A stretch of 43,526 nt of DNA from an uncultured Candidatus Saccharibacteria bacterium. GTDB taxonomy: Bacteria > Patescibacteriota > Minisyncoccia > Phycocordibacterales > UBA9973. Numbering within the stretch: position 1 is the stretch's first letter; every line of letters starts with the position of its first letter. Below, in pieces: positions 8,768 to 38,668 of this stretch. The stretch spans positions 1 through 43,526 of the forward strand of contig CAYLKL010000007.1 of assembly GCA_964384645.1 (NCBI GenBank), read 5' to 3'. A program made the translations under genes and the position numbers. The notes beneath the pieces were generated by a model that saw nothing but the letters and a program-made list of their open reading frames with translations, was not told where the DNA came from and did not search any database.

Positions 8768-8803
8768 TTCTATGGAACTCTTCGCACGAATAGTTCCATA
8801 GAA
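8768..8803. repeat. Palindromic element P1 (TTCTATGGAACTCTTCG-CA-CGAATAGTTCCATAGAA), a member of a family with copies at 38285 and 38631
   Basis: Near-perfect 17 bp inverted repeat. It shares the core ATGGAAC..TTCGC.CGAAT.GTTCCAT with P2 and P3. Confidence 0.7.
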
Positions 8804-8816
8804 TCGTCGTTATTCA

Positions 8817-8945
8817 CATTGAGAAGTTTTGATTATACGAACACGCGAGGACGAGCGTTCCGAATGAAAAAACAATCTGTTTGAGCAAGGCGAGTTATTG
8901 TTTTTAGCGAGTCCGAGTGTTGTGAGTATTCAAAACTTCTCAGTG
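8817..8945. repeat. MITE-like unit: 16 bp terminal inverted repeats (CATTGAGAAGTTTTGA / TCAAAACTTCTCAGTG) flanking about 97 bp of GC-rich sequence
   Basis: 15 of 16 positions in the two arms are complementary. The interior carries three repeats of G/C-rich GCGAG-type motifs. Confidence 0.45.
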
Positions 8946-8989
8946 GTGAGAGCATTTTTGGTTACTTTTTGGTGGTTAAAAAGTAACAA
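8944..8989 (-). repeat. 46 bp hairpin-containing element (GTTACTTTTT-N7-AAAAAGTAAC core), copy X. Inverted copy at 21058-21103.
   Basis: The reverse complement matches 21058-21103 at 44 of 46 positions; both differences are A/G. Confidence 0.7.
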
Positions 8990-8993
8990 ATCA

Positions 8994-9027
8994 AACCACC
9001 TTTGGTGGTTTTTCAAGTCTTTTTTAT
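8994..9027 (+). terminator. Hairpin plus T-run (AACCACC-TTT-GGTGGTT then TTTTCAAGTCTTTTTT) immediately upstream of proS. It is either a terminator for the upstream unit or an attenuator.
   Basis: Sequence-only call; no T-box consensus was found. Confidence 0.45.
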
Positions 9028-9055
9028 TTACCAAATATAGAGTAGTATTGTCTCT

Positions 9056-10312
9056 ATGAAGCAATCAAATTTTGTAACTCGAGCCGAGAAGACGGTTTCT
9101 GGGGAAGAAACCTCAAAAAACGCTATTTTACTTGAACAGGCAGGCTTTATAAATAAGCTTTCGTCTGGAATTTATAGCTTTTTGCCAATGGGACTTCGGG
9201 TTCTTAAAAAGATTGAAAACATAATAAGAGAAGAAATGAACACTGTTGGTGGTCAGGAAATTTTCATGCCAGCACTTCATCCAAAGGAAAATTGGGCAAC
9301 TACTGGAAGATGGGAATCTTTGGCTAGTGAAATGTATCATTTAAAAGACGCAAGTGATAGGGAGTTTGCATTGGGTGCAACACATGAAGAAGTTGTAACT
9401 CCACTTATTCAAAATTTTATTCGTTCATATCGCGATCTACCAAAATCTGTTTATCAATTCCAATCAAAGTTTCGAATGGAGCTTCGTGCCAAGGGTGGAC
9501 TTTTACGAGGACGAGAATTTATGATGAAAGATATGTATTCATTTCATACCACAGAAGAAGATCTGAATGCTTATTATGACAAAGTAACAAATGCTTACCG
9601 AAAAATTTTCCAACGTGTTGGTTTGGGGCATATTACTTATTTGACATTCGCTTCGGGTGGAAGTTTTTCAAAATTCTCTCACGAATTTCAAACAATCTGT
9701 TCAACTGGAGAAGATACTATTTATTTGGATGAAAATAAAAATATTGCTGTAAATAAAGAAGTTCTAGAAGATGATGTGCTGAAGGAAATTGGTATTGATA
9801 AGGAAAGCCTAAAAGAAAGAAAGGCAATTGAAGTTGGGAATATTTTTAAATTAAATACCAAATTTTCTGATCCTTTCAAAATGGAATTCAAAGACGAAGA
9901 CGGTACGAACAAAACAGTTTTAATGGGATGCTATGGAATTGGCCTTAGTCGAATAATGGGAACAGTTGTCGAAGCGCTTGCTGATGATAAGGGTCTTGTT
10001 TGGCCAGAATCAATCGCGCCATACAAAGTGCATTTGGTTATGCTTGGTACAAAAGAAGATACAAAACAAAAAGCAGAAGATTTGTACAAACAATTAAATG
10101 ATAAAGGTATTGAAGTTTTGTTTGATGATCGAGAAGTTTCAGCTTGAGAAAAATTAGCTGAAAGTGATTTGTACGGAATACCTATGAGACTCGTGGTGTC
10201 AGATAGAAGTTTGGCTGAAGGAATGGTTGAGTTAAAGAGCCGAACAGAAGAAAAGCCGAACATGATTGCGCTTGATAAAATTATTTCGAAATTAACTGAT
10301 GAAAATAATTAA
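9056..10312 (+). CDS. proS: Prolyl-tRNA synthetase (bacterial type without the INS editing domain). The reading frame contains an in-frame TGA at 10145-10147 that aligns with a conserved Gly; the ORF track stops at 10147.
   Basis: Class II motifs are present. The 54 codons after the TGA continue in the same frame as the conserved anticodon-binding C-terminus (EKLAESDLYGIPMRLVVSDRSLAEG...), ending at TAA 10310-10312 and overlapping the mreB start. Confidence 0.85.
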
Positions 10313-11351
10313 AGATTTTACAGATAAATTTTCAAATGAGATCGGAATAGATCTAGGGACTGCGAATACTTTAGTTTATCTAAAAGATCACGGTGTTGTT
10401 ATTTCCGAGCCGTCAGTTGTTGCGGTGAATCAAAAAACAAATCGTATTGTTGCGGTTGGTGCGGAAGCAAAACAAATGATGGGTAGAACTCCGACTCATA
10501 TAAAAGTAATCAGACCTCTTGTTGAAGGTGTTATTTCTGATTTTGAAATTACCGAAGAAATGTTGGCGTATTTGATAAATAAAGCCGAGAAGATTTCTAA
10601 AAAGTTTTTTAAACCACGTGTTGTTATTGGGGTGCCGAGTGGAATTACAAATGTTGAAGCTCGAGCTGTTTTTGACGCAGCACGTTCTGCTGGGGCACGA
10701 GATGTTTATATTATTGAAGAACCAATGGCTGCTGCTATTGGAGTAAGGTTGCCGATTTTTGAACCAGTCGGATCTATGGTTATTGATATAGGAGGAGGAA
10801 CATCTGATATTGCGGTTATTTCACTTGGTGGAATTGTTCGTTCAAAAAATTTACGAATCGCTGGAGATGTTTTGAATAAAAATATATCAGATTATATCCG
10901 AGATGAATTCAATCTTTTGATCGGAGAAAAAACAGCTGAGCAAGTTAAAATTTCTGCAGGGAATGTAATGCCAGGAACTCCAATTGAAATAGAAGTAAGA
11001 GGGCGAGATATCGTGACAGGGCTTCCTAGACAAGTTGTTGTTACTGATACGGATATTCGAGAGGCGATATCTGCTTCAATCTCGTCTTTGATTGATGCCG
11101 TAAAAGAGGTTTTGGAAACTACGCCACCAGAAATTCTCTCAGATATAATGCATCGAGGAATTGTGCTTATGGGGGGAGGGGCTCTTCTCTCTGGGCTTGA
11201 TACATTACTTCAAAATGTTCTCAGGCTTCCTGTAAAAGTTGCCGATGATCCACTAACAGCCGTGGCTCGTGGAACTGGTATAATATTTGAAGATATAAAT
11301 TTATACAGAGGAGTTTTACTTCAAATTGAAGATGATTTACCGTCAAGATAA
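10299..11351 (+). CDS. mreB: Rod shape-determining protein MreB (actin homologue)
   Basis: IGIDLGTANTLVY..., DIGGGTSDIAVIS and other actin-fold motifs. Confidence 0.93.
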   Translation: MKIIKDFTDKFSNEIGIDLGTANTLVYLKDHGVVISEPSVVAVNQKTNRIVAVGAEAKQMMGRTPTHIKVIRPLVEGVISDFEITEEMLAYLINKAEKISKKFFKPRVVIGVPSGITNVEARAVFDAARSAGARDVYIIEEPMAAAIGVRLPIFEPVGSMVIDIGGGTSDIAVISLGGIVRSKNLRIAGDVLNKNISDYIRDEFNLLIGEKTAEQVKISAGNVMPGTPIEIEVRGRDIVTGLPRQVVVTDTDIREAISASISSLIDAVKEVLETTPPEILSDIMHRGIVLMGGGALLSGLDTLLQNVLRLPVKVADDPLTAVARGTGIIFEDINLYRGVLLQIEDDLPSR

Positions 11352-12120
11352 AATAAATAAAAATAAAATTTACAAGATTATTTTCTTGCTCTTTTTTGTT
11401 CTGGTTATTTTAACTCCATTCGGTAATTTTTTGGGTAAAATAGCTATTAATATTTTTTCTGGTGCGGGTGCAGTAAGTGCGCGAGCCGAAGCATTGGTGG
11501 AAAATACAGAACTATCTTTAATGTCTAAAAAACAATTGATTGAAAAAATAAAAGTTCAAGAAGAAGAAATAAATAGACTGAGCATTACGGAAAATTTATA
11601 CACAGAACTCGTTGTTGATTATGAAAAAGTAGTCACTCTTTTGGATATTAAAAATCAATTCTCAGATTTGGTTTTAACTGAAGTTGTTTCTAGTCCAAGT
11701 CAAAATATTTATAACACAATAATAATTAGTAAAAGTTTTAATGTTGGAAGTTTTGTTTTTAGTGAATCAGGAATTCCAATTGGTACAATAGAAAGTAGTA
11801 GTGACAAAAATTCTACCGTTTTGTTTTTTTCAAATTCAGGGCGTGAGACAGAGGCATTTTTAAATAATGACACAACTCCAGTGACTCTTGTTGGAAAAGG
11901 ATCTGGGAATTTTACGATATCGCTTCCTCGAGAAATCGAAGTCAAAGAAGGAGAAAGTGTTTATTTGCCGGGAGTTAAAAATCCAATTGCTAAAGTTGGT
12001 TTTGTTGAATTTGATCCACGCGATCCATTTCAAAAAGTTTATCTTTTGAGTGATCAGAATGTTTATAAACTTGATTATGTTTTAGTACAAAGCGAAACTA
12101 AAATAGAAGCTGAACTCTAA
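11326..12120 (+). CDS. mreC: Rod shape-determining protein MreC
   Basis: It overlaps the mreB 3' end. It has an N-terminal TM, a coiled-coil segment, then a beta-rich domain, in the conserved mreBC arrangement. Confidence 0.7.
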   Translation: MKMIYRQDKINKNKIYKIIFLLFFVLVILTPFGNFLGKIAINIFSGAGAVSARAEALVENTELSLMSKKQLIEKIKVQEEEINRLSITENLYTELVVDYEKVVTLLDIKNQFSDLVLTEVVSSPSQNIYNTIIISKSFNVGSFVFSESGIPIGTIESSSDKNSTVLFFSNSGRETEAFLNNDTTPVTLVGKGSGNFTISLPREIEVKEGESVYLPGVKNPIAKVGFVEFDPRDPFQKVYLLSDQNVYKLDYVLVQSETKIEAEL

Positions 12121-12131
12121 AATTTACAAAA

Positions 12132-12164
12132 AGAAAAAGCGCAAAAAATTTTGCGCTTTTTTAA
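12132..12164. terminator. Bidirectional intrinsic terminator between the convergent genes
   Basis: AAAAGCGCAAAA-A-TTTTGCGCTTTT, flanked by A and T runs. Confidence 0.75.
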
Positions 12165-12171
12165 TAACAAC

Positions 12172-12681
12172 TTATTTAATTTTATCCGGCGGATTGGCTG
12201 GTCCTACAGCTGAGTCAATTGCTTGGCGAAGCGGGTATCTTCGGGAATAATCTTTTGGATCATATTGTCTTTGAGGGTTTGCTTTTACTCGAGACGAAGT
12301 AGAATTCCCTTGTCGTGTTCGGTGGTTTGCATTTCTTTGAACAGAACGATGACTTAATTTCCTTATATCACTCATTTTTCTCTCGTGTTCCTCATCTTGC
12401 TCTTTTAGTTTTTTTCTAAACTCCGCAAGCCATCTTTCTGTTTCTTTGTTTTCTTTCTCAATGACTGCGGTTATTGAGTCAAGTGTGTGAGTATAATCCA
12501 ACGTAGCTTGAATTAGGGAATCTTTCCAATGTTTAAAGCTTGAATCTTGTGCACTTCTTTTTTTATCTTCAGCTGCCGCTTCTTCATTGTTAGACTGGTT
12601 ACATTTAGAGAACTGTATTCCTAAATGTATTACTAAAAGGGTAGCTCCAATACTGAGTAATGCAATAAAAGAATTTTTCAT
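12172..12681 (-). CDS. Hypothetical secreted or membrane-anchored protein with a charged coiled-coil region
   Basis: Signal or TM N-terminus followed by Lys/Glu/Arg-rich segments. Confidence 0.5.
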   Translation of the reverse strand: MKNSFIALLSIGATLLVIHLGIQFSKCNQSNNEEAAAEDKKRSAQDSSFKHWKDSLIQATLDYTHTLDSITAVIEKENKETERWLAEFRKKLKEQDEEHERKMSDIRKLSHRSVQRNANHRTRQGNSTSSRVKANPQRQYDPKDYSRRYPLRQAIDSAVGPANPPDKIK

Positions 12682-12782
12682 ATGTAGTTTTTTAAGTTCA
12701 GTTATACTTAGGAATTATATCACTAAATACACTAAAAGTCAAGTCGTTAAAACCACTCACATTCTGCTATATTAGTATTGTT

Positions 12783-13985
12783 TTGAAAGGCTTTAATTAC
12801 GAAATTATAAAAAAAGGTCCAGGGAAAGCGCGCGCTGGGATTATTCATACAAAAAACGGTGATATACAAACTCCGGCGTTTATTCCTGTTGGCACAAAAG
12901 CGACTGTCAAAGCTCTTACTCCTGAAGAAGTAAAATCGGCTGGCGCTCAAGCAGTCCTTGCAAATACATATCATTTATATTTAGCACCCGGGATGGAGAC
13001 AATTGAAAAAGCAGGTGGATTTTCAAAATTTATGAACTGGACGGGTCCTACATTTACTGACTCTGGAGGATTCCAAGTTTTTTCACTAGGGCTCGCATTT
13101 GGAGAGAAAGTTTCAAAAGTTGCCAAGGGAGAAGTTTCAGAAGACTTTGGAGAAAAAAATGATCATGCAAAGCTCGCAAAAATTGATGAAGATGGGGTAA
13201 CTTTTAGTTCGCATGTTGATGGAAGCTTGCATAGGTTTACGCCAGAGAGCTCAATGGATATTCAGTGGAAATTGGGGGCTGATATTATTTTTGCATTTGA
13301 TGAATGTACAAGTCCGCAAGCGTCACACGAATACCAAAAAAGTGCATGGGAAAGAACTCATAGATGGGCAAAGCGATCAATTGAGGCACATGAAAAACTA
13401 GACCCTGAAAATGTTCAAGCAATTTTTGGTGTTGTTCAAGGTGGACGATTTGAAGACTTGCGAAAAGAGTCTGCGCGAGAACTCGCTAAAATGAATTTTG
13501 ATGGATTTGGAATTGGAGGGTCATTTTCGAAAGATGATATATCAACGGCTGTTGGTTGGGTGACAGAAGAATTGCCAGACGATAAACCAAGGCATCTTCT
13601 TGGAATTGGTGAACCAGAAGATATGATTTTGGCTATTGGGCAGGGAATAGATACTTTTGATTGTGTTACTCCAACTCGAAACGCTCGAAACGGAACACTC
13701 TATACAAGTACAGGAAAAGTACATATGAAAAATGAAAGATTTAAAAATGATTTTTCTCCAGTCACCGAAGATTGTGATTGTTATACTTGTTCAAATTTTT
13801 CAAAAGCCTATTTATCGCATCTATATAAACAAGGCGAAATGTTGGCAGGCACGCTTGGCTCAATTCACAACATTCATTTTTTGATTGAGGTTGCAAGTGG
13901 TGCTCGAGAAGCAATTTTGGCTGGAAATTTTGAAGAATATTCTCAAATCTTTTTGGGTAAATATAGAAATTTAAAAAGTGAGTAA
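12783..13985 (+). CDS. tgt: Queuine tRNA-ribosyltransferase (TTG start as given by the track)
   Basis: Conserved PAFIPVGT..ANTYHL.., the catalytic Asp region and the Zn site CDCYTCSNFSKAYLSHL. Confidence 0.9.
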   Translation: MKGFNYEIIKKGPGKARAGIIHTKNGDIQTPAFIPVGTKATVKALTPEEVKSAGAQAVLANTYHLYLAPGMETIEKAGGFSKFMNWTGPTFTDSGGFQVFSLGLAFGEKVSKVAKGEVSEDFGEKNDHAKLAKIDEDGVTFSSHVDGSLHRFTPESSMDIQWKLGADIIFAFDECTSPQASHEYQKSAWERTHRWAKRSIEAHEKLDPENVQAIFGVVQGGRFEDLRKESARELAKMNFDGFGIGGSFSKDDISTAVGWVTEELPDDKPRHLLGIGEPEDMILAIGQGIDTFDCVTPTRNARNGTLYTSTGKVHMKNERFKNDFSPVTEDCDCYTCSNFSKAYLSHLYKQGEMLAGTLGSIHNIHFLIEVASGAREAILAGNFEEYSQIFLGKYRNLKSE

Positions 13986-14616
13986 TTTAATAAAATATAA
14001 AGAAGAAGAAAAAATTATTATTCTCGACAAGCCATCAGGAGTTTCTTCTTTTCGATTTATAAATGAATACAAAAGAAGTATCGATGCTAAAAAGATTGGT
14101 CACGCGGGCACTCTCGACCCAATGGCGTCCGGTGTAATGCTCGTTGCTGTAAACGAAAATACAAAAATCTTGGGTGAATTTGTTGGTCTTACTAAAAAAT
14201 ATATCGCTGAAATAACTTTGGGTAAAAAGACTGATTCGGGGGATAAAGAAGGGAATGTTGTTGAAGAAAAACCAGTTCCAGAAATAACAGATGAAAAAGT
14301 AAAGAATGTTTTAAAATCTTTGATTGGAAATATTGAAATGCCTGTTTCAAATTTTTCTGCAATGAAGTACCTTGGAAAACCTCGATATGAATATGCTCGA
14401 GCGGGAAAAGAAATTCCAGAAGTAAGAAGAGAGATGGAGATATTTGAAGCCAATTTAATCAAATTTGAAAAAAATATTATTTCTGCTGAATTTTTTGTTG
14501 GAAGTGGAACGTATATTCGCTCTATTGCAGAATATGTAGGAGAAAAATTGGGAACGGTAGCGCACTTGTCAGATCTTAGACGAACAGCTGTTGGTCCATT
14601 TGAGATAAATAAATAG
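13978..14616 (+). CDS. truB: tRNA pseudouridine-55 synthase TruB, catalytic domain only (no PUA domain)
   Basis: ILDKPSGVSS...GHAGTLDPMASGVMLVAV. It overlaps the tgt stop. Confidence 0.85.
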   Translation: MSNLIKYKEEEKIIILDKPSGVSSFRFINEYKRSIDAKKIGHAGTLDPMASGVMLVAVNENTKILGEFVGLTKKYIAEITLGKKTDSGDKEGNVVEEKPVPEITDEKVKNVLKSLIGNIEMPVSNFSAMKYLGKPRYEYARAGKEIPEVRREMEIFEANLIKFEKNIISAEFFVGSGTYIRSIAEYVGEKLGTVAHLSDLRRTAVGPFEINK

Positions 14617-14681
14617 TTGTCTCTATTTGATAAATGTTTTTAGGGCTTTTTTAATTTCTAAAAATAAAGTATTGTATTGGT

Positions 14682-17718: not shown

Positions 17719-17808
17719 ACATCTATTATACTCATTTTTTCTGTGGTATAATCCACTTACAAGTTAATACATATACCCTTAGAGTAATCCGAGGGCTAAT
17801 TTTGATAT

Positions 17809-20439: not shown

Positions 20440-20468
20440 AAAAAAGAAAGCTTCTGCTTTCCTTTTTA

Positions 20469-20996
20469 TTAAGACTCTTCCATTATTTTTTTGAATAATT
20501 GTGTCCATGTGACCATTTTTTTAATCAATAAATCAAATTCCACCTGAGTTATTTCTTGATCATTCAAAAATAATTCTTGGGCAGATATGATGTCTAAATT
20601 TATACTCTTTAAAGTAATTACTTTTTCAAAGTTAAATTGCGAATCCCTAACTGACACATTGTAAGTAGAATTATTCTCTTCCTGAGTTTGTTTTTTATCT
20701 AATAAAATATAGTAATCAATTAAAGAGTTCATATCTACTACTACATTCTTGTATTCCCTGATACACTTTTTGATAATCTGCGAAGAAGGGGAAGTTCCTA
20801 TACACTTATTATAATTAGCTCCAAGGTTATTTAGGCTTTTAATAATATTTTGCCCGCAATCTTCTTTTGCCATGGCAATTTCCAAAACAGAATTAAATTT
20901 AACTGTGTCATTTGGGTTATTTTCGATTTTCTGTATTTGAGCATTTAAAATGACGGGAAATAATGCAATAAGACCACTTAGGAAGATTTTTTTCAT
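20469..20996 (-). CDS. Hypothetical secreted protein (signal peptide, Cys-containing)
   Basis: N-terminal signal peptide MKKIFLSGLIALFPVILNAQ. A duplicated promoter module lies upstream. Confidence 0.55.
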   Translation of the reverse strand: MKKIFLSGLIALFPVILNAQIQKIENNPNDTVKFNSVLEIAMAKEDCGQNIIKSLNNLGANYNKCIGTSPSSQIIKKCIREYKNVVVDMNSLIDYYILLDKKQTQEENNSTYNVSVRDSQFNFEKVITLKSINLDIISAQELFLNDQEITQVEFDLLIKKMVTWTQLFKKIMEES

Positions 20997-21050
20997 TTTT
21001 ATAAGGTTTTAGTTTTGCTCACTTTACACTTCTAATATATATTTGTCAAA
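20994..21050 (-). promoter_or_regulatory. Promoter/5'UTR module, copy A. On the minus strand it reads TTGACA-17-TAAAGT. A near-identical copy is at 21531-21588.
   Basis: TTGACA corresponds to plus-strand 21044-21049 and TAAAGT to 21021-21026, with a 17 nt spacer. The core 21006-21050 matches 21544-21588 at 44 of 45 positions. Confidence 0.6.
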
Positions 21051-21057
21051 TTTTAAA

Positions 21058-21103
21058 TTGTTACTTTTTAACCGCCAAAAAGTAACCAAAAATGCTCTCG
21101 CCA
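21058..21103 (+). repeat. 46 bp hairpin element, copy Y (partner of 8944-8989)
   Basis: See copy X. On the minus strand it sits about 60 nt upstream of the start codon at 20996, a similar spacing to copy X before proS. Confidence 0.7.
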
Positions 21104-21242
21104 GGATAAAGTTTTATTATGAAAACGAAATTCGTCCTCCCAAAAAATTTAAACTCCACTTCGACAAGCTCAGTGTCAAACAGAAAATTTTTAGTCTTCG
21201 GACTCATTGGTTTTCATATATAAAATTTTATAAGGCGAAAAT

Positions 21243-21272
21243 AAAAAAACCGGCGGTTAGGCCGGTTAAAGT
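21243..21272 (-). terminator. Intrinsic terminator for the minus-strand gene 21266..21535
   Basis: On the minus strand, AACCGGC-CTAACC-GCCGGTT followed by TTTTTTTAT. It overlaps the stop codon. Confidence 0.65.
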
Positions 21273-21535
21273 TCCAAAATATTTTTTTCGGCATAGTCAA
21301 TTAATTTTTCAATTTTTGATAAGTGGCAAAATTTAAAAGAATCATTTTGAAAATCACCCACCTCTAATTTAGAACAAGTGCAGTTGTGAAGATGTCCCAC
21401 TAAAAACTCAGCCCTTTCAGACAGGCTGGCTTTACCAGGGGTATGAATATTATTGCTAATGATTAAACTCTTCAATTCCGATATTATTCTGTTGATAACA
21501 TTAAAAGAGTATCCATTGAATATTTCTGTTTCCAT
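21266..21535 (-). CDS. Hypothetical 89 aa protein, Cys/His-containing
   Basis: It has its own terminator and duplicated promoter module B. No family was recognised. Confidence 0.5.
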   Translation of the reverse strand: METEIFNGYSFNVINRIISELKSLIISNNIHTPGKASLSERAEFLVGHLHNCTCSKLEVGDFQNDSFKFCHLSKIEKLIDYAEKNILEL

Positions 21536-21588
21536 TTTGTTAAGTTTTAGTTTTGCTCACTTTACACTTCTAATATATACTTGTCAAA
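21531..21588. promoter_or_regulatory. Promoter/5'UTR module, copy B. It lies in the 54 bp divergent spacer between gene 21266..21535 and uvrC and may act bidirectionally.
   Basis: Near-identical to copy A. The same TTGACA-17-TAAAGT arrangement appears on the minus strand. Confidence 0.55.
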
Positions 21589-21589
21589 C

Positions 21590-26331: not shown

Positions 26332-26341
26332 TGGACCCTAC

Positions 26342-26414: not shown

Positions 26415-26545
26415 TGGATAATATCAAATTAACCATTATGTGTCACTATATTAACCTAAAAATCGTTGTTTTGTAAAGCGATTTGGTTTACTATTAATTT
26501 TAGTCCTTATTCTGTAAGAATATAGCCTCGAAATCGTCATAACCT

Positions 26546-27962: not shown

Positions 27963-27986
27963 AAACACTCGAGAGAGTGTTTTTTC
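27961..27986 (+). terminator. Intrinsic terminator
   Basis: ACACTC-GAGA-GAGTGT followed by TTTTT. Confidence 0.65.
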
Positions 27987-28076
27987 GAGTTCTTTCAAAA
28001 AGATAAATAATTTTGACATATTCATATATGAGTGGTAGGGTAGTGTGGTAAATCACTTAAACAAAAGAATATAACT

Positions 28077-28598: not shown

Positions 28599-28613
28599 TT
28601 TTTAATTGAGAAC

Positions 28614-28649
28614 AAAAAAGCCGGAATAATTTCCGGCTTTTTATTTTTG
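28614..28649. terminator. Bidirectional intrinsic terminator between the plus-strand gene and the minus-strand tRNA-Ala(GGC)
   Basis: A6-GCCGGAA-TAAT-TTCCGGC-TTTTTATTTTT. Confidence 0.75.
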
Positions 28650-28651
28650 TG

Positions 28652-28724
28652 TGGACCGTACCGGGATTGAACCGGTCGCCCCTTCCATGCCATGGAAGCA
28701 CTCTACCAAATGAGCTAACGGCCC
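28652..28724 (-). tRNA. tRNA-Ala (anticodon GGC), CCA not encoded
   Basis: On the minus strand: GGGCCGT-TA-GCTC-ATTTGGTA-GAGT-G-CTTCC-ATGGCAT-GGAAG-GGGCG-ACCGG-TTCAATC-CCGGT-ACGGTCC-A. The G3:U70 pair is present. Confidence 0.85.
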
Positions 28725-28835
28725 GATGTTAAATATACAAGTGTTTGTAGGAAGTACTACAAATTAGTTGGTAACCTGTAAATAAAATTAAAATATTTAT
28801 TCACGAGATTTTAGCATATTTTTTTATTTTTAAAA

Positions 28836-28844
28836 TGTTATAAT
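28836..28844 (+). promoter_or_regulatory. Extended -10 promoter TGTTATAAT ending 8 nt before the ATG at 28853. This implies a leaderless or near-leaderless mRNA.
   Basis: Consensus TGnTATAAT, with the start codon at 28853. Confidence 0.55.
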
Positions 28845-28852
28845 TTTCTCAT

Positions 28853-32414: not shown

Positions 32415-32442
32415 CTATATTTCTGTTAGAATAGAATGATAT

Positions 32443-33681
32443 ATGGCAAAAGAAAAAAGAGTTTTAATCGTTGGAGGTGGATTTGCTGGTGTGCAAGCAG
32501 CTCTTGATTTATCAAAGAAAAATTTACCAAATACATTTATTACTCTTGTTTCTGATAGGCATCATTTTGAGTACACACCCCTTTTGTATCGCGCTGTGAC
32601 TGGACGAAATCCTATGGAAGTTTGTGTGCCCTTACGAGATATTTTTGAAGGCAAAAATGTTGCCATCGATATCGATACAATTATAGGCGTAACTCCAGAT
32701 CAAAACACTGCGATTGGATCAAGCGGAACAACTTACGAGTTCGACTATGCCATTTTGGCTCTCGGAAGTGAGACTATTTTTTATGGAATAGAGGGGATGA
32801 AAGATTTCTCTTTTTCTTTCAAGTCTATAAACGAGGCACTTCGTCTAAAAGAACATCTTCATAGAATGTTTGAGGAAGGAAAACACGCAGCTGGATCAGA
32901 GAAAGATTCCCATTACAGAATAGTTATTGTTGGAGGGGGTCCTTCTGGGGTTGAGCTTGCGGGAGAGCTTGCCGTCTATACAAAAAACTTTAGTAAAATA
33001 CATAAAATAGATCGAAATAAAATAGAAATAGTTTTAATAGAAGGATCAGATCGAGTTTTGGCCATGCTTTCGCCAAAGGTTTCTGCTTTGGCACTAAAAA
33101 AATTAAAGGAACTAAATGTTAAGGTGTTATTGAGTGAACGAGTAAAGCAGGTTGAAAAAGAAAAAGTTTTACTTGATAACGATGAAATAATTTCAAAGAC
33201 TATTGTGTGGGCGTCGGGGATTAGGCCAAAAGAATTTTATTCAACTATTCCAAATACCGAAAAAGATCCGAAAGGAAGAGTTGTGGTAGACGGGCAACTT
33301 TCTATAAAAGAGCATGAAAATGTATTTGTTGTTGGTGATGGTGCAAATACAAAATATTCAGGAATGGCACAAACTGCAATTGTTGATGGGGCATTTTCTG
33401 CAGAAGTTATCGCTTCCAAAATACAAGGCAAATCTTTGCCAAAATATTCTCCAAAAAAAGTTGGTTACTCTGTTCCGGTTGGGCCAATGTGGGCTATATT
33501 TACATACGGTAATATTTCTTTTTCGGGACTTTCTGCTTGGATTCTTAGAAAAATAATTGATATAAGATATATGACAAGTATTCTTCCTTTTTGGAAAGGG
33601 CTTATCGCTGTAAAAGAAGGCGCAAGACTTTGTGAATCATGCCCAACTTGTACAAAGTGTATAAAAGATAATAATAACTAA
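32443..33681 (+). CDS. ndh: Type II NADH dehydrogenase-like FAD/NAD(P)-binding oxidoreductase with a C-terminal Cys cluster
   Basis: VLIVGGGFAGV...DRHHFEYTPLLYRAVTG, and a second Rossmann motif IVIVGGGPSGVELAGE. Confidence 0.7.
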   Translation: MAKEKRVLIVGGGFAGVQAALDLSKKNLPNTFITLVSDRHHFEYTPLLYRAVTGRNPMEVCVPLRDIFEGKNVAIDIDTIIGVTPDQNTAIGSSGTTYEFDYAILALGSETIFYGIEGMKDFSFSFKSINEALRLKEHLHRMFEEGKHAAGSEKDSHYRIVIVGGGPSGVELAGELAVYTKNFSKIHKIDRNKIEIVLIEGSDRVLAMLSPKVSALALKKLKELNVKVLLSERVKQVEKEKVLLDNDEIISKTIVWASGIRPKEFYSTIPNTEKDPKGRVVVDGQLSIKEHENVFVVGDGANTKYSGMAQTAIVDGAFSAEVIASKIQGKSLPKYSPKKVGYSVPVGPMWAIFTYGNISFSGLSAWILRKIIDIRYMTSILPFWKGLIAVKEGARLCESCPTCTKCIKDNNN

Positions 33682-34241
33682 ATCTTTTTTAGAATTGCCG
33701 GTATTTTTTTAAAATCTTTTAGCAAGGTCTCTCTAAGTTTTCCATTATATAAAGCAACTGCTGGATGATAGAGTGCCAAGAAATTTTCTGTTTTTAAATT
33801 TGGAAATTTATTTTTCAAAAGTTTTCCGTGAATTTCACTAATTTTAAATTCTGGAAAAAAGTCATTCATCGAGTGCCTTCCCAAAAAAACAATAAGTTTT
33901 GGTTTTATAAAATTTAATTCATCAATTAGCCATTCGCGACAATCTTCTTTTTCTTTTGGCAACGGGTCGCGATTGTTTGGTGGACGATATTTTACAATAT
34001 TTGTAATGTAGATTTTTTCACGACTCATTTTTATTTCTTTAAGCATTTCACTTAAAAATTTTCCAGCACGTCCAATAAAAGGCCGGCCTTCTAGGTCTTC
34101 ATTTTTACCAGGAGCTTCACCAATAAAGACAATTTTGGCTTTCGGGTTGCCGTCTCCAAATACTGCTTGAGTGGCAGTCTTTTTTAGTTTGCATTTGCAG
34201 GCTTTTTGCCAGTATTTGTTTATTTCCGATAAATCCCTCAT
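33678..34241 (-). CDS. Uracil-DNA glycosylase, family 4 (Fe-S type)
   Basis: VFGDGNPKAKIVFIGEAPGKNEDLEGRPFIGRAGKFL and N-terminal cysteines. Confidence 0.8.
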   Translation of the reverse strand: MRDLSEINKYWQKACKCKLKKTATQAVFGDGNPKAKIVFIGEAPGKNEDLEGRPFIGRAGKFLSEMLKEIKMSREKIYITNIVKYRPPNNRDPLPKEKEDCREWLIDELNFIKPKLIVFLGRHSMNDFFPEFKISEIHGKLLKNKFPNLKTENFLALYHPAVALYNGKLRETLLKDFKKIPAILKKI

Positions 34242-34278
34242 ATCTTGATTATATAGATAATTCTGATAAGCTTAAGAC

Positions 34279-34512
34279 ATGTTTGGAGGAATAAAAGATT
34301 TTTTTGTAAAAAAGCTTCTCGAGAAGCAGTTAAAAAATGTGCCACCTGCACAACGCGATATGATAATGAATATGGTTCAAAAAAATCCAGAACTATTTAA
34401 AAAAATTGCCGCTGAGGTAGAAAACAAAAAGAAAAATGAAGGTAAGGATGAAATGGTCGCAACTATGGAAGTAATGCGAAAATATCAAGGAGAACTTAGA
34501 AATTTGATGTAA
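34279..34512 (+). CDS. Hypothetical small protein
   Basis: ORF only. Confidence 0.4.
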   Translation: MFGGIKDFFVKKLLEKQLKNVPPAQRDMIMNMVQKNPELFKKIAAEVENKKKNEGKDEMVATMEVMRKYQGELRNLM

Positions 34513-34517
34513 AGACT

Positions 34518-34994
34518 ATGTTTAATGCAGAAAATCCGCAGGATGTAAATCACTTAAACTCCTCAAAAGAGAATCTTGTAGGTAAGTTAGAAGACCTTAA
34601 AAATAGAAAATCAGAAATAACTCACTTTTATGATGAGTTTAGATTTGCTTATTTTAATTCAGATCAGGACAAAGAAGAAATTTCTAAAAAGAGAGAAGAG
34701 CTTTTAAATTCATTGTTGCAAAATAAAGAACTGGAGAATATAAATGAAGAAATTCATAAACTTAACAGAGAAATAATGTTAAGACACAGAAAGGACCTGG
34801 CGACTAATTATTTAGTAACACAAATGTTTCTAAGCGATCTTTACCAAAAGATGTTTGATCTTCCAGAGGGTGACGTAAGGTTGAAAGAGATAGAAGATAA
34901 GATTGTTGAATTTGAAAATTTGCTCAAAAATGATATTAAAAGTTTAAACTCGGAGGGGTTATCTGAGGATCTTGTAAAAAATGGAGGGTATTAA
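34518..34994 (+). CDS. Hypothetical coiled-coil protein
   Basis: ORF only; charged heptad-like content. Confidence 0.45.
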   Translation: MFNAENPQDVNHLNSSKENLVGKLEDLKNRKSEITHFYDEFRFAYFNSDQDKEEISKKREELLNSLLQNKELENINEEIHKLNREIMLRHRKDLATNYLVTQMFLSDLYQKMFDLPEGDVRLKEIEDKIVEFENLLKNDIKSLNSEGLSEDLVKNGGY

Positions 34995-35016
34995 CTAGAT
35001 TTTTATTGAAAAGTTA

Positions 35017-35042
35017 ATAAAAAAAGGAGCGCTATGCGCTCC
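35017..35042 (-). terminator. Intrinsic terminator for minus-strand gene 35067..35360
   Basis: On the minus strand, GGAGCGC-ATA-GCGCTCC followed by TTTTTTTATT. Confidence 0.65.
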
Positions 35043-35066
35043 TCTCGGGGGTTAGGGTTCACTGTA

Positions 35067-35360
35067 TTATGTTGTTTGAGCCTCAGGCTCTTTTTGTTTC
35101 TTTTTAACGACAGGTGCCGGGTCTTCGTATGTGGCGATTATAGCTTCTGCGTATTTTGCATATTTTTCCGGCAGTAGTGTTTCTTTTTGTCTCCAGGCCT
35201 TCATTGCTTTTTGGTAATCAGATATTGGTGAAAAATGTTTACCGTTGTGTTTAAGATGTTGGCCAGTTTGTGGATCCATCTTGAAACAGGTTTCTTTGTT
35301 GGTTCCTGGGACGGTTGCTCTTATGAGCAGGTTTTCGTTGGCTGATTTGATACAGTGCAT
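35067..35360 (-). CDS. Hypothetical 97 aa protein under a consensus promoter
   Basis: ORF with its own consensus promoter and terminator. No family was recognised. Confidence 0.5.
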   Translation of the reverse strand: MHCIKSANENLLIRATVPGTNKETCFKMDPQTGQHLKHNGKHFSPISDYQKAMKAWRQKETLLPEKYAKYAEAIIATYEDPAPVVKKKQKEPEAQTT

Positions 35361-35392
35361 ATTTAGTTATTTTAAGGTTAAACTTGTTGACG

Positions 35393-35421
35393 ATTATATA
35401 CACTTGTTTATAAATTGTCAA
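35393..35421 (-). promoter_or_regulatory. Consensus sigma-70 promoter on the minus strand, TTGACA-17-TATAAT, driving gene 35067..35360
   Basis: Perfect -35 and -10 hexamers with a 17 nt spacer. Confidence 0.65.
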
Positions 35422-35423
35422 AA

Positions 35424-35452
35424 TAAAAAAGCCCTGTATTCTCGGGGCCTTT
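35424..35452 (-). terminator. Intrinsic terminator for minus-strand gene 35454..36086
   Basis: On the minus strand, GGCCCCGAGAATACAGGGC followed by TTTTTTATTTT. Confidence 0.55.
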
Positions 35453-35453
35453 C

Positions 35454-36086
35454 TTAATTGAAAATTTTTTTAAGCAGAGAGGAAATGAACGTTTTTTTTG
35501 GGTTCAAAATTCTTTCCCGTTTCTTCAGAATATATTCATAGGCATATTGTGTCTGTTCTCTCGAAATATATCCGGGTGTTTCAATATGTGTTTGGCTTAC
35601 GTACTTCTTTTCTTCGTGTAATCCAAAAGCCATCACAAATAAATCCGTCGCCACCTCAGATTCCCTGTGTTTGTCGAAAGTAGAGTAGAGGGTTAAATGA
35701 GCTAATTCATGGCAAAGTGTTGTTATGAAAAATTCAAATTTTTCATAGCGTTCTGGATGAATACAAATCTCAAACCGTATTCTTTTAAATGCCTCTGTGT
35801 AAAAAAGTACCGGTTTGTACTTGTTTAATGTTATATACCCCTTACAAAGTGGGTCTTGTAGCGTACTGGTATTCTTCTGTATTAATCTTACATTAGCCGG
35901 AATATTTACTTTTCTTAGGAAATCAACAATTATTTCTTTGTGTAGATTTCTTTCGAACCAAATCCTGTAGGCTTTATTATAAGATAATAAGTCAAAGTTG
36001 AATTTTTGAACAAAGTGATCGATAACACTTTCAATGTACTTTTTATCTTGCTGGGTCATAGACTGAGTTGTTTTAAGGTTTGGCAT
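35454..36086 (-). CDS. HExxH-motif putative Zn metallohydrolase (SprT/DUF45-like), divergent from the next gene
   Basis: CHELAHL...H motif. Call by motif only. Confidence 0.45.
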   Translation of the reverse strand: MPNLKTTQSMTQQDKKYIESVIDHFVQKFNFDLLSYNKAYRIWFERNLHKEIIVDFLRKVNIPANVRLIQKNTSTLQDPLCKGYITLNKYKPVLFYTEAFKRIRFEICIHPERYEKFEFFITTLCHELAHLTLYSTFDKHRESEVATDLFVMAFGLHEEKKYVSQTHIETPGYISREQTQYAYEYILKKRERILNPKKTFISSLLKKIFN

Positions 36087-36129
36087 ATTTTAGCATACAT
36101 TATAGTTTTGTCAAACAAACAAAACAAAA

Positions 36130-36138
36130 TGTTATAAT
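36130..36138 (+). promoter_or_regulatory. Extended -10 promoter TGTTATAAT for the DUF45 gene
   Basis: Identical nonamer to the one at 28836. Confidence 0.5.
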
Positions 36139-36147
36139 CCCAATATC

Positions 36148-36669
36148 TTGGAATACACAATAAAGAAAAATAAGCTTTCAAAAGGGATGCGAATAACCAT
36201 AAAAGAAGGTGGGGAAGTTTTGGTTACAATACCAAGACGATTGCCGAAATATTTTGCCCACCGTTTTGTTGAAAGTAAAAAAGATTGGATTGTCGAAATG
36301 CAGGCAAAGGCAAAATCTCGTCCGCAAAAAATCTTGGCACATTATTCGGCAAAAGATTTCAAAGAACACAAAGAAAGCGCACTTGTTTTGATAGAAAACC
36401 GAATTGCTCATTTTAATAAATTTTATAAATTTGAAATTTCCAAAGTCGTCGTTCGCAATCAAAAAACAAGATGGGGAAGTTGTTCGGGAAAAAAGATTCT
36501 AAATTTCAATTACAAACTTGTTTTCTTACCACTTCCACTCGCAGACTATATTGTCGTCCATGAACTTTGCCACCTAGCCCAAATGAACCACGGCCCAAAA
36601 TTCTGGGCATTAGTAGCTCAGCAAATCCCGGATTATAAGGAACGAAGAAAACAAATAAGACTTTTTTAG
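36148..36669 (+). CDS. YgjP/DUF45-family metal-dependent hydrolase (HExxH..NH..FW). The likely start is the ATG at 36187.
   Basis: WGSCSGKKILNFNYKLVFLPLPLADYIVVHELCHLAQMNHGPKFWALV is the family hallmark. Confidence 0.75.
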   Translation: MEYTIKKNKLSKGMRITIKEGGEVLVTIPRRLPKYFAHRFVESKKDWIVEMQAKAKSRPQKILAHYSAKDFKEHKESALVLIENRIAHFNKFYKFEISKVVVRNQKTRWGSCSGKKILNFNYKLVFLPLPLADYIVVHELCHLAQMNHGPKFWALVAQQIPDYKERRKQIRLF

Positions 36670-36677
36670 GTTATGTG

Positions 36678-36706
36678 TTGACATAATAGTATTTTGCTGG
36701 TAATGT
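36678..36706 (+). promoter_or_regulatory. Sigma-70 promoter TTGACA-17-TAATGT for the SPFH gene
   Basis: Hexamers at 36678-36683 and 36701-36706. Confidence 0.6.
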
Positions 36707-36756
36707 ATCGCCAGTATATTTGTTCATTAAAATCACATCTAAAAACTAAAAAACTT

Positions 36757-38139
36757 ATGAAAAATCTTATTGTGTTGAGTATTTTGCCTGATTTATCAGG
36801 TTCAGTGTCCGGGTTGTCAGCAGGTGTATTTGTTGTCATCGTGGCCATCATGGCCTTTCTTTACAGAACTGTTGTACCTACAAACATGGTGCATATTGTT
36901 CAATACAGAAAGAAAACAATCTCGTATGGAACAGGTCAGTCTGCTGGTAATGTATATTACAGATGGCCTGCATGGATTCCTTTTTTTGGGGTAACTTCTA
37001 TACATTTACCTGTTAGCAACTTCAATTTAAACTTCAAAGATTATGAAGCTTATGACAAAGACCGAGTACCTTTTGTTCTAGATCTAACGGCTTTCTTTCG
37101 TATTACTGATACAAATATCGCCGCTCAGCGTATTTCAAGTAAGACGGAGTTGGACAATCAGTTAACGTCTATTTTGCAAGGTGCAGTAAGAAAAATTCTT
37201 GCTTCGCACGACATAAATGCAATCATGACGGATCGCGCAACTTTTGGTAAACAATTTACAGAAGAGGTTCAACAAGAACTTCAAAACTGGGGTGTTGAAC
37301 CGGTAAAGAATATTGAACTTATGGATATTCGGGACGCAAAAGGATCATCGGTAATTGCAGACATTATGGCAAAGAAGAGTTCCCAAATAAATATGGAGAG
37401 CCGTATGGAAGTTGCTAAAAATAATAAAGAAGCAGAAATTGCAGAGGTTGTAGCTGCACGTGAAGTCGATGTAGAAAAACAAAATGCACTTGAGGTTGTC
37501 GGTAAACGAACTGCAGAAAAAGACAAGGCGGTAGGTATTGCTAAAGAGGTTTCTGAGCAAGAAATAAAAAATGAGCAAGCCAAAACTGCAGAAAAAGACA
37601 AGACTGTTGAGAAGATTAAATTGGTTCGTGATGCTGAAAATGCTAAAGAAGCAGCTATTGTTGAAGCGGATCAGGAAAAAGAAACAACAATCAGAATTGC
37701 TGATGGTAAACTTCAGGCCACAAAACTTGAAGCTCAGGGAATTGAAGCAAAAGGTAGGGCAGAAGGAGAAGCTGAAAAAGCAAAACAACTCGCTCCTGTT
37801 GAGGCTCAAATTAAATTAGCCAAAGAGATTGGTGGCAATCATAATTATCAAAGTTATCTGGTGTTACTTGAAGCTACTAAGGCGTATACTACAGTTGGTA
37901 CTGAACAAGCTAAAGCATTGCAAGATGCAGAAGTGAAAATCATTGCCAATGGTGGAAACGCTCAGGATGGAGTGAAAAATGCTCTTGATCTTTTTAGCAC
38001 AAAAGGAGGTTTCTCTATTGCTAGCATGCTTGAAGCATTGGAGGCAACACCGCAAGGGCAAAAGCTCGTTGATAGTCTTGGTGATTTGTTTGCTAAAAAA
38101 GAAAACACTGAAAACACTGATAGTAAAAAAGAAGCTTAA
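36757..38139 (+). CDS. SPFH/band-7 (flotillin-like) membrane protein (ATG at 36757; the track starts it at TTG 36694)
   Basis: N-terminal TM, an SPFH domain, then a long Ala/Glu/Lys-rich coiled coil. Confidence 0.8.
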   Translation: MKNLIVLSILPDLSGSVSGLSAGVFVVIVAIMAFLYRTVVPTNMVHIVQYRKKTISYGTGQSAGNVYYRWPAWIPFFGVTSIHLPVSNFNLNFKDYEAYDKDRVPFVLDLTAFFRITDTNIAAQRISSKTELDNQLTSILQGAVRKILASHDINAIMTDRATFGKQFTEEVQQELQNWGVEPVKNIELMDIRDAKGSSVIADIMAKKSSQINMESRMEVAKNNKEAEIAEVVAAREVDVEKQNALEVVGKRTAEKDKAVGIAKEVSEQEIKNEQAKTAEKDKTVEKIKLVRDAENAKEAAIVEADQEKETTIRIADGKLQATKLEAQGIEAKGRAEGEAEKAKQLAPVEAQIKLAKEIGGNHNYQSYLVLLEATKAYTTVGTEQAKALQDAEVKIIANGGNAQDGVKNALDLFSTKGGFSIASMLEALEATPQGQKLVDSLGDLFAKKENTENTDSKKEA

Positions 38140-38153
38140 TTAGTTGCAGTGAT

Positions 38154-38188
38154 CAAAGTCGACCCTTAGGGTCGACTTTTTTTATTTT
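38154..38188 (+). terminator. Strong intrinsic terminator
   Basis: AGTCGACCC-TTA-GGGTCGACT followed by TTTTTTTATTTT. Confidence 0.8.
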
Positions 38189-38201
38189 GCAAAAACTCAT
38201 A

Positions 38202-38256
38202 GCCCTTCAAATCCCGGATTATAAGGAGAGAAGAAGGCAAATAAGACTTTATTAAT
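38202..38256 (+). pseudogene. 3'-terminal remnant (17 codons plus stop: ALQIPDYKERRRQIRLY*) of a DUF45/YgjP-like gene, directly repeating the 3' end of 36148..36669
   Basis: About 47 of 55 nt are identical to 36614-36668, and the reading frame is preserved (QIPDYKERRKQIRLF* vs QIPDYKERRRQIRLY*). Confidence 0.65.
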
Positions 38257-38284
38257 ATTAGACATGCTTTTTTTGACTTCATTT

Positions 38285-38316
38285 TACACGGAACTATTCG
38301 CTCGAATGGTTCGGTG
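38285..38316. repeat. Palindromic element P2 (ACACGGAACTATTCG-CT-CGAATGGTTCGGTGT), 35 bp upstream of the arsR-like start
   Basis: Inverted repeat sharing the core with P1 and P3. Confidence 0.7.
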
Positions 38317-38351
38317 TAAGAAATAAAAATAAAAAGGTGTAAAATATTTGT

Positions 38352-38612
38352 ATGAAGCAATATGAAAAAATATTGAAAGCACTTGCCAACAAAAGAAGGT
38401 TGGAAATAATTAAATATTTAAAAATCAACAAAGAAGCGACGGTCGGCGATCTAGCAGACAAAATAAAAGTATCTATAAAGGCCACATCCAAACATTTAGC
38501 GATTCTCGCAAATGCTGGCGTTTTGGAAAGAGAGCACCGTAGTTCTTTTATTCTTTATTCGCTATCGCGCGAACTAGAGCCGGTCGCAAAAGCAGTTATT
38601 TTTTTGGTTTAA
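38352..38612 (+). CDS. ArsR/SmtB-family HTH transcriptional regulator
   Basis: RLEIIKYLKINKEATVGDLADKIKVSIKATSKHLAILANAGVL is a winged-HTH ArsR signature. Confidence 0.8.
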   Translation: MKQYEKILKALANKRRLEIIKYLKINKEATVGDLADKIKVSIKATSKHLAILANAGVLEREHRSSFILYSLSRELEPVAKAVIFLV

Positions 38613-38630
38613 TTTATTTAGTTGATTTAG

Positions 38631-38668
38631 TATCCATGGAACCATTCGCTCGAATGGTTCCATGGATA
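38631..38668. repeat. Palindromic element P3 (TATCCATGGAACCATTCG-CT-CGAATGGTTCCATGGATA), a perfect 18 bp inverted repeat
   Basis: Perfect palindrome immediately after the arsR-like stop. Confidence 0.75.

Follow-up and report, generated by a model that had tools for sequence, protein, structure and literature searches.

Short palindromes flanking a minimal ArsR-like gene in Patescibacteria are candidate operators of the encoded protein

The stretch of DNA analysed here (hereafter the window) is a whole contig of 43,526 nucleotides (nt) with approximately 35% G+C from an uncultured Candidatus Saccharibacteria bacterium (CAYLKL010000007.1). It carries three copies of a short palindrome, called P1, P2 and P3. 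The latter two flank a gene encoding an 86-amino-acid (aa) protein of the ArsR/SmtB family (called arsR below), and P1 stands alone upstream of proS. We consider it likely, with a probability of roughly 0.7, that the palindromes are the cognate operators of the 86-aa protein and that they represent a minority variant of an element conserved in Patescibacteria. An initial annotation, made from the window alone, had described them as a dispersed repeat family and had offered operators as an alternative, with 12-2-12-like sites, autoregulation through P2 and a further target at P1. The comparative evidence presented here favours this alternative.

All three palindromes were recovered at the positions first assigned to them (Table 1), and P3 is the perfect inverted repeat it had been said to be. 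A search of the contig for GGAACNNTTCGNNCGAANNGTTCC with up to 3 mismatches returned exactly P1, P2 and P3, where 0 matches are expected, and this pattern had 0 matches in 100 dinucleotide-preserving shuffles of the window. Likewise, the 8-base core TTCGNNCGAA occurs three times in the 43.5 kb, each time within one of the palindromes. When ATTCGNNCGAAT was relaxed to 2 mismatches, the window contained 20 matches versus 24 expected, which is nothing above chance. Folding of the three sites yields hairpin energies of −19.2 (P1), −21.2 (P2) and −29.8 (P3) kcal/mol, with z values from −6.8 to −9.8.

The placement of P2 and P3 relative to arsR is precise. The right arm of P2 extends to the −35 position of the arsR promoter, and its end at 38320 lies 19 nt 5′ of a TAAAAT hexamer resembling a −10 element and 31 nt 5′ of the ATG at 38352. 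The distance of 35 base pairs (bp) originally reported between P2 and arsR holds for the shorter repeat boundaries used at the time, and becomes 31 nt when the arms are re-read to their full extent. P3 starts 18 nt beyond the arsR stop codon, which ends at 38612, and the final two bases of its right arm open a TATAAT hexamer (38667-38672). P1 carries TAGAAT at 8799-8804, with the mirror-image hexamer on the opposite strand.

The association between the protein family and the element is specific and near-universal. We gathered 80 loci with arsR homologues by protein similarity alone, 71 of which are non-identical (individual loci are designated by numbers preceded by L). In nearly all 80 loci, a TTCGNNCGAA core is located 15-70 nt before the start codon, and another lies 0-65 nt after the stop codon or overlaps it. 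Both copies are present in 57 of the 71 non-identical loci, and most of the others have one side lost to a contig end. For comparison, the expected frequency of the core is about one per 65 kb. The stop codon is often located within the left arm of the downstream copy, where TCTCTAA runs directly into TTCG. The family consensus is cTATTCTCTAATTCG-NN-CGAATgGnnGAATAG, of which the window type, ATGGAACCATTCG-NN-CGAATGGTTCCAT, is a minority variant that is also present in L123 and L135, with hybrid sites in L156 and L200. Additional copies are concentrated near the gene. Across the 71 non-identical loci, their density in successive 1-kb bins from arsR is 1.52, 1.03, 0.49, 0.20 and 0 per 10 kb.

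The bases adjoining the core vary with the protein. Homologues in L120 and L122 (66% and 59% identical, respectively) are flanked by CTATTGTCTAATTCG..CGAATGGTAGAATAG rather than by palindromes of the GGAAC type, and the core is the same. In L132, two paralogues are encoded 3 kb apart, each with its own arm type, and two further sites nearby match the type of the first paralogue. In a set of 75 proteins, the wing-tip residue (position 65) tracks the three bases adjacent to the core. This residue is Leu in 38 of the 41 proteins of the TAA class and Ser, Val or Thr in the other classes (permutation p < 0.004, shared ancestry uncorrected).

Upstream copies have a characteristic promoter geometry. 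Of 84 homologue loci, 46 have a TAnnnT hexamer that ends 5-9 nt ahead of the ATG. Many loci (L120, L122, L124, L133, L151 and L198) have TAGAAT or TACAAT as the right arm of their upstream copy, 6-7 nt before the ATG, and a TATAAT is found 15-25 nt beyond the upstream copy, again 6-7 nt before the ATG, in L123, L137, L155, L181 and L187. TAnnnT occupies the arm position in 34% of upstream copies versus 6% of downstream copies and 12% of extra copies; the latter two groups mostly have GCGAAT or GAGAAT there. This layout is the one predicted for a leaderless mRNA with an operator-covered promoter, and the promoter of arsR in the window is likewise presumed to be of the leaderless type.

The 86-aa protein is a bona fide representative of the ArsR/SmtB fold. 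It matches Pfam HTH_5 (E = 4.9e-11, 42.8 bits against a cut-off of 22) and NCBIfam NF033788 (66.7 bits against a cut-off of 55), and its second-best NCBIfam match, which falls under the cut-off, is the SdpR autorepressor subfamily. An AlphaFold (AF2) model with a pLDDT of 94.2 has the topology α1-α2-α3-α4-β1-β2-α5, with a β-wing at residues 58-71. The nearest folds found by Foldseek are HlyU, NolR, CadC, PagR, SqrR and CzrA with TM scores of about 0.8; specific matches include HlyU (4k2e; E = 5.9e-06, TM 0.81) and a NolR-DNA complex (4omy). The 72 close homologues are nearly all 86 aa long, and those whose source is named come almost exclusively from Patescibacteria. Their recognition helix, LS[FI]KATSKHL, is invariant, and the invariant columns of a 38-sequence alignment are A12, N13, R15, R16, V31, S41, T45, S46, H48, L49 and L52. 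The alignment has no invariant Cys, Asp or Glu and no second invariant His. When the metal ligands of the family were sought (the α3N Cys motif and the α5 Asp/His/Glu residues), the window protein was found to have no Cys and no α5 metal site. It is therefore not a classical metal sensor and is grouped with the non-metal-sensing members of the family.

These features suggest a model, deduced from sequence comparisons, in which a dimer of the 86-aa protein would bind each palindrome. Within each site, (A)TTCG/CGAA(T) is the invariant core that the recognition helix would read, and the variable bases adjoining it would be read by the wing. Given the position of P2, which adjoins or overlaps the −35 region of the presumed leaderless promoter of arsR, we propose that the protein represses its own gene. 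P3 probably insulates the unit by roadblocking read-through transcription, and it may also control the TATAAT that its right arm enters. The probable target of P1 is a short structured transcript that precedes proS.

The position of P1 is conserved. Two relatives, L206 (92.6% nt identity) and L207 (95.2%), carry it at the position seen in the window, and the hexamer at its right side is TAGAAT in L206 and TATAAT in L207, corresponding to a conserved or improved −10 element. The proS gene begins approximately 250 nt beyond P1. The region from 8804 to 9058 folds at −77.9 kcal/mol (z = −5.8), and the structured stretch between P1 and the proS promoter may correspond to a P1-driven transcript. A known RNA family at this site was rejected, given that neither P1 nor the structured region after it has an Rfam match at gathering score and matches at E values up to 1 are at chance level. 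In other lineages, proS does not adjoin a palindrome. The initial annotation had placed P1 in an atypical region. This characterization does not hold, because the preceding 217-aa open reading frame (ORF) belongs to a conserved Patescibacteria protein family with 189 homologues, and the order rpsB, ORF, proS is also present in relatives.

Sites of the GGAAC type are not confined to arsR loci. An exact-pattern scan with one genome per species yielded at least 122 sites. Among the matches listed, the free positions of the pattern are complementary in 59 and non-complementary in 63, and the latter, mostly from high-GC genomes, look like chance matches. The 59 complementary sites are mostly from Patescibacteria, often with several per genome, and the lineages among the matches listed include Saccharibacteria, Paceibacterota, Doudnabacteria, WWE3, Kerfeldbacteria, Campbellbacteria and Jorgensenbacteria. 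Within this set, the palindrome is thus strongly enriched in Patescibacteria genomes, and its perfect arms are as long as 24 nt with variable sequence. ArsR homologues (41-56% identical) adjoin the palindrome in at least 8 loci, and in L048 and L069 the gene is flanked on both sides, which is the arrangement of the window. The other neighbours of GGAAC-type sites are unrelated housekeeping genes.

Several observations weigh against an interpretation of these palindromes purely as operators. The −35 element of the arsR promoter is weak, and a consensus scan called no promoter there. The test for covariation between wing and arm carries no correction for shared ancestry. Downstream copies rarely have a −10 element and persist even where they face a convergent neighbour (13 of 58), and their role is therefore not simple promoter control. 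Genes neighbouring the unit have no common function and offer no regulon logic. The sites from Patescibacteria (the candidate phyla radiation, CPR) among the GGAAC-type matches listed are located in 28 co-directional, 3 convergent and 0 divergent gene pairs, compared to a baseline of 190, 46 and 44 intergenic regions, respectively. The absence of divergent pairs among these 31 sites, where about 6 are expected, is not the distribution of an element restricted to promoters. In addition, the outer arms of GGAAC-type sites differ between sites within one genome, yet they are symmetric within each site. An example is the mirrored double substitution that distinguishes P3 of the window from P3 of relative L204 (CCATGG to CCAAGG..CCTTGG) at an overall identity of 95%. 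A dimer reading fixed bases leaves this symmetry unexplained on its own, which suggests that selection for a hairpin or cruciform, or templated self-correction of the palindrome, acts alongside protein binding.

Two relatives are informative regarding gain or loss of the arsR unit. L204 (95% identical) has, in this order, YgjP, P2, arsR, P3, an S49 peptidase remnant and MmeI, with the same truncation of the S49 gene as in the window, and its equivalent of P2 is a perfect palindrome with 15-nt arms. L096 (85% identical) has YgjP, a single palindrome and a full-length sppA gene encoding 294 aa that starts 101 nt after the palindrome, and there is no arsR gene. In both relatives, a single intact YgjP gene runs straight into the palindrome, and the SPFH gene of the window is missing. 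Consequently, the DUF45 (YgjP) remnant before P2 belongs to an SPFH insertion or duplication (36669-38207) and is not part of the arsR unit, contrary to the tie between the two that had first been drawn. An alignment of the junctions reveals that the L096 palindrome is chimeric: its left flank is that of P2 and its right flank that of P3. Its outer arms are asymmetric, unlike those of P2 and P3, each of which is symmetric. This indicates a deletion by recombination or slippage between P2 and P3 rather than an empty insertion site. The L096 structure thus appears to fit excision of arsR by recombination between its operators, and the presence of two operators makes the gene prone to precise excision. 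A separate observation concerns the central dinucleotide, which is CT in both P2 and P3 of the window and the reverse complement AG in both L204 sites. This flip could reflect concerted change, flipping of the loop or gene conversion between the copies.

These comparisons bear directly on the alternative in which the palindromes are the recombination or transposition ends of a mobile cassette, or a family resembling repetitive extragenic palindromes (REPs) or miniature inverted-repeat transposable elements (MITEs), that leaves behind solo palindromes and deletions. A mobile element of this kind would be consistent with the self-contained nature of the unit, which resides in unrelated contexts (98 of 117 neighbouring proteins are singletons), with the occurrence of two cassettes in some loci (L132 and L164) and with the retention of the downstream copy even between convergent genes. 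Furthermore, the unit is precisely absent from the YgjP-sppA site of L096, where one palindrome is kept, and the deletion of sppA in the window begins exactly at P3. Nevertheless, we regard this explanation as unlikely. The L096 chimera is the signature of a deletion between P2 and P3 and not of an unoccupied site, the SPFH insertion accounts for the DUF45 remnant, and both P1 and the arsR unit are positionally stable in relatives that are 92-95% identical. Moreover, target-site duplications are absent, no viral copies were counted, and the unit has no associated transposase or recombinase, with the 86-aa helix-turn-helix (HTH) protein lacking a catalytic domain. There are only three copies per 43.5 kb, copies cluster locally instead of being dispersed, and the fall in extra copies from 1.5 per 10 kb next to arsR to 0 at 4-5 kb likewise led us to abandon the dispersed REP/MITE-like family that was proposed originally. 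The description of a palindrome-bounded cassette fared better in that the unit is conserved, self-contained, present in unrelated contexts and precisely absent in L096, but the chimeric site there points to a loss and not to an insertion. L096 is the one case of presence and absence, and it has the structure of a deletion between P2 and P3.

A related but distinct view combines regulation with mobility. The operator-promoter, repressor gene and second operator would together form a portable, self-insulating cassette, with operators doubling as insulators and recombination substrates, in effect a semi-selfish 'mobile regulon'. Excision would proceed as in L096, possibly followed by re-insertion at solo operators elsewhere, and operators and repressor would spread together through Patescibacteria genomes. 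Hairpin-mediated self-correction would maintain the long perfect palindromes of the GGAAC type. We consider this view doubtful.

Another explanation is that the palindromes function as RNA hairpins, either as 'I-shaped' terminators without a U-tract or as stabilisers of 3′ ends, in which case the link to arsR would be secondary. The folds of P1, P2 and P3 are very stable, the arms extend symmetrically with variable sequence, several copies in L120 are followed by a T-run, and the CPR sites among the matches listed, none of which separates divergent genes, usually follow a stop codon by 9-35 nt. However, P1-P3 have no U-tracts, and a terminator scan called none of them, instead calling canonical terminators that already precede P1 (8731-8762) and P2 (38155-38179). 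The downstream copies are no more stable, symmetric or T-rich than upstream copies located before promoters, and a terminator function for the downstream copy was rejected on this basis. Beyond the core, the arms of the consensus are only about half complementary. Nor would a plain terminator need a core that is conserved across many Patescibacteria lineages, or arms that vary according to the neighbouring protein, and we judge this explanation to be improbable. Least probable by our assessment is the possibility that the palindromes are architectural or segregation sites for a nucleoid or centromere-binding protein, comparable to the ArsR-fold protein AspA of pNOB8 or to parS/ParB. This would be compatible with sites that flank their own gene and cluster (eight in 2.2 kb in L120), with the few GGAAC-type sites found inside genes without insertion (those for PrmC, TsaD, an RlmI-like methyltransferase and ArgRS) and with the AspA fold among the Foldseek matches at rank 48. 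Against it, there is no consistently adjacent ParA/ParB partner, the intragenic MiaA matches are compatible with chance given the peptide ELFARIV and the size of the database, and the promoter geometry of the upstream copies argues for transcriptional control.

Among known systems, the unit would be classed as an ArsR/SmtB-type autorepressor, with no metal site, a 12-2-12-like operator and two unusual features, namely operators at both gene ends and the lack of a fixed gene partner. Classical ArsR/SmtB operators, such as those of SmtB, CzrA and CadC, are 12-2-12 inverted repeats. The system in the window shares with them the fold, an inverted repeat around a 2-nt centre and an operator at the gene's own promoter, which would imply autorepression. 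It differs in lacking Cys and the α3N and α5 ligands, in its longer arms (15-18 nt) and in the absence of a resistance or efflux gene after the regulator, the neighbours of which vary by locus. In addition, nearly every gene of this type has a second operator at its 3′ end, and the stop codon often falls within it. The best sequence and structure matches of the window protein are the non-metal-sensing regulators HlyU, NolR, PagR, BigR, SqrR and SdpR, which are likewise small dimeric winged-helix proteins with palindromic sites. BigR, SqrR and HlyU use a Cys pair for redox or persulfide sensing, which the window protein does not have. The NolR site is (A/T)TTAG-N9-A(T/A), and the operator sequence in the window is unrelated to it.

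Among repeat elements, REPs associated with RAYT proteins (REP-associated tyrosine transposases) are similar in being short extragenic palindromes that flank one gene and often follow gene 3′ ends. In the present case, the flanked gene encodes an HTH protein and not an HUH Y1 transposase, and there are three copies in 43.5 kb, as opposed to hundreds spread over a genome, with extra copies across the arsR loci falling to 0 beyond 4 kb from the gene. REPs carry a GTAG-type 5′ tetranucleotide and are species-specific, whereas the window palindromes have no such tetranucleotide and their core spans many Patescibacteria lineages. The features of MITEs are also missing, as the elements are single palindromes of 36-38 nt with no internal segment and no flanking duplication. 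Integron attC sites are 57-141 nt in length, have R″/L″-L′/R′ cores and form arrays beside intI. The window palindromes are shorter and border a single cassette, and there is no integrase among the neighbouring families. Finally, Matus-Garcia et al. reportedly described, in 2012, putative mobile promoters, which are homologous promoter segments upstream of unrelated genes. The palindromes resemble these in that an element containing or abutting a −10 sequence is found beside unrelated genes in many genomes, and differ in having a repressor-binding core and a tie to a repressor gene, and in that most copies not located upstream have no −10 element.

A search of full-text literature revealed no relevant description of this sequence, or of an ArsR protein from CPR bacteria or Saccharibacteria with a palindrome or motif, and the unit of repressor plus sites seems to be undescribed. 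Patescibacteria have tiny genomes with very few transcription factors, and no transcription factor-operator pair was found described for them in the literature searched. The unit provides a concrete, widely conserved candidate that comprises one protein family, its probable recognition core (A)TTCG-NN-CGAA(T), arm positions that seem to set specificity and a leaderless layout. A near-universal 3′ operator and the precise loss of a gene between operators are unusual for ArsR-type regulators, and both are relevant to the question of how a regulatory unit can keep working while the genes around it are rearranged. Should only the ordinary part of this interpretation hold, the proteins would constitute a new subfamily of autoregulated ArsR-like repressors.

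Three further hypotheses regarding the arsR loci were considered and rejected. DNA looping between the two operators finds no support in their spacing, which is 279-437 bp from centre to centre in 57 loci and has no helical phasing (Rayleigh p 0.18-0.40 for periods of 10-11.3 bp). The existence of a conserved partner gene, in a regulon or an operon, was likewise dismissed, given that the gene families near GGAAC-type sites and those near arsR, including all of the downstream genes, are different. In addition, an origin from phages or other mobile elements was discarded, as viral contigs contain no ArsR relatives and only 5 pattern matches, none of which were counted as copies.

Table 1. Coordinates of the palindromes and adjacent features in the 43,526-nt window.
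Feature	Position	Strand	Remarks
Terminator of 217-aa ORF	8731-8762		Canonical, hairpin and T-run; P1 directly after
P1, solo palindrome	Arms 8767-8784 and 8787-8804		Centre CA; 17 of 18 positions complementary
Structured non-coding stretch	8809-9016	+	Between P1 and proS promoter
SPFH/band-7 gene	36694-38139		Own terminator at 38155-38179; between two copies of the YgjP end
Duplicated YgjP/DUF45 3′ end	38200-38254	+	55 nt, 85% identical to 36614-36668
P2, candidate upstream arsR operator	Arms 38283-38300 and 38303-38320		Centre CT; 15 of 18 positions complementary
TAAAAT, −10-like hexamer	38340-38345	+	6 nt before arsR ATG
arsR-like gene	38352-38612	+	86 aa, minimal ArsR/SmtB winged helix-turn-helix
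P3, at arsR 3′ boundary	Arms 38631-38648 and 38651-38668		Centre CT; 18 of 18 complementary, perfect 18-2-18 palindrome
S49 (SppA-like) peptidase 3′ remnant	38676-38861	+	Pfam PF01343 profile positions 102-148 only

The genes surrounding the arsR unit in the window were reexamined with Pfam and repeat comparisons, which confirmed that the ArsR-like gene, the S49 (sppA) 3′ remnant and the DUF45 3′ end reported initially are real. An intact YgjP/DUF45 gene lies upstream of the SPFH gene, and the arrangement of this gene between two copies of the YgjP end suggests that a gene was inserted or duplicated at the 3′ end of YgjP. The S49 remnant corresponds to the last approximately 60 codons, with the missing 5′ part beginning directly after P3; an S49 peptidase gene adjoins the unit only in the lineage of the window and in L120/L121. 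Downstream of the remnant is a restriction-modification gene of the MmeI type. Specifically, the MmeI-family type IIL gene in the region 38917-43525 encodes 889 aa, covering all five MmeI Pfam domains, and the 645-aa ORF after it weakly matches a restriction enzyme of a DNA phosphorothioation system. Together they may form a small defence island that borders the downstream side of the arsR unit. L108 likewise has an MmeI homologue, 3 kb from arsR. A link between arsR and the MmeI-like gene was rejected, given that it recurs only in L108 and is not found among the downstream neighbours in the 80 loci.

Matches to the GGAAC-type pattern are also present within genes. In-frame palindromes were found in L034, L060, L071/L114, L079, L084 and L044/L056/L066, in genes for an RlmI-like methyltransferase, TsaD, PrmC, a beta-lactamase-like protein, ArgRS and MiaA, in each case with no insertion. 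The encoded peptides are GTIR(A/T)N(G/S)S or E(L/Q)FARIV, and the PrmC palindrome is at the same position in two homologues that are 53% identical. Insertion into genes in the manner of Rickettsia palindromic elements was rejected on the grounds that the MiaA alignment has no insertion and that conservation of ELFARIV together with database size can account for the MiaA matches. Actinobacterial matches were not accepted as members of the family, as they have no adjoining ArsR homologue. One group of these, in Actinopolyspora biskrensis (L001, L011, L012 and L098), comprises at least four loci with near-identical GGAACGTTTCGCGCGAAACGTTCC, including one mismatch in two copies, and probably represents an unrelated family of REP-like elements with a chance match to the pattern. 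Other actinobacterial matches resemble GC-rich terminator hairpins.

Several additional repeats were observed. Within the spacer between P1 and proS, the 64 nt from 8932 to 8995 are repeated in inverted orientation at 21052-21115. L206 (3104-3257) has, in place of the middle of this spacer, a 165-nt copy of window positions 21077-21239 (82% identical). Unrelated to the palindromes, the spacer repeat is a second small element, repeat or ncRNA-like, and shows insertion polymorphism. Near its other copy, a 60-nt segment occurs twice (20991-21050 and 21529-21588, 90% identical). On the minus strand, both segments contain TTGACA, 17 nt and TAAAGT, and each precedes the start codon of a different minus-strand ORF (20469-20996 and 21266-21535). 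This duplicate appears to be a promoter and 5′ region that was copied before unrelated genes. Elsewhere in the window, ARAGORN predicts a tRNA-Ala(GGC) at 28651-28724, and the Rfam scan at gathering score lists only the other two tRNAs.

Two of the homologous loci have unusual arrangements. The second arsR cassette of L164 (2078-2892) is split by an insertion of approximately 480 bp. In the orientation opposite to that of the cassette, the insert codes for a 144-aa protein with a HYHVVFPVKYRK motif. This is an HUH-type motif, and the protein is presumably a TnpA similar to those of IS200/IS605 elements. In L120, the eight copies of the L120-type element are located between 8136 and 10271, several of them before T-runs. 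This array-like arrangement separates the genes for an S49 peptidase, a rhodanese, ArsR and a DUF2238 protein, such that each gene is bounded by the element.

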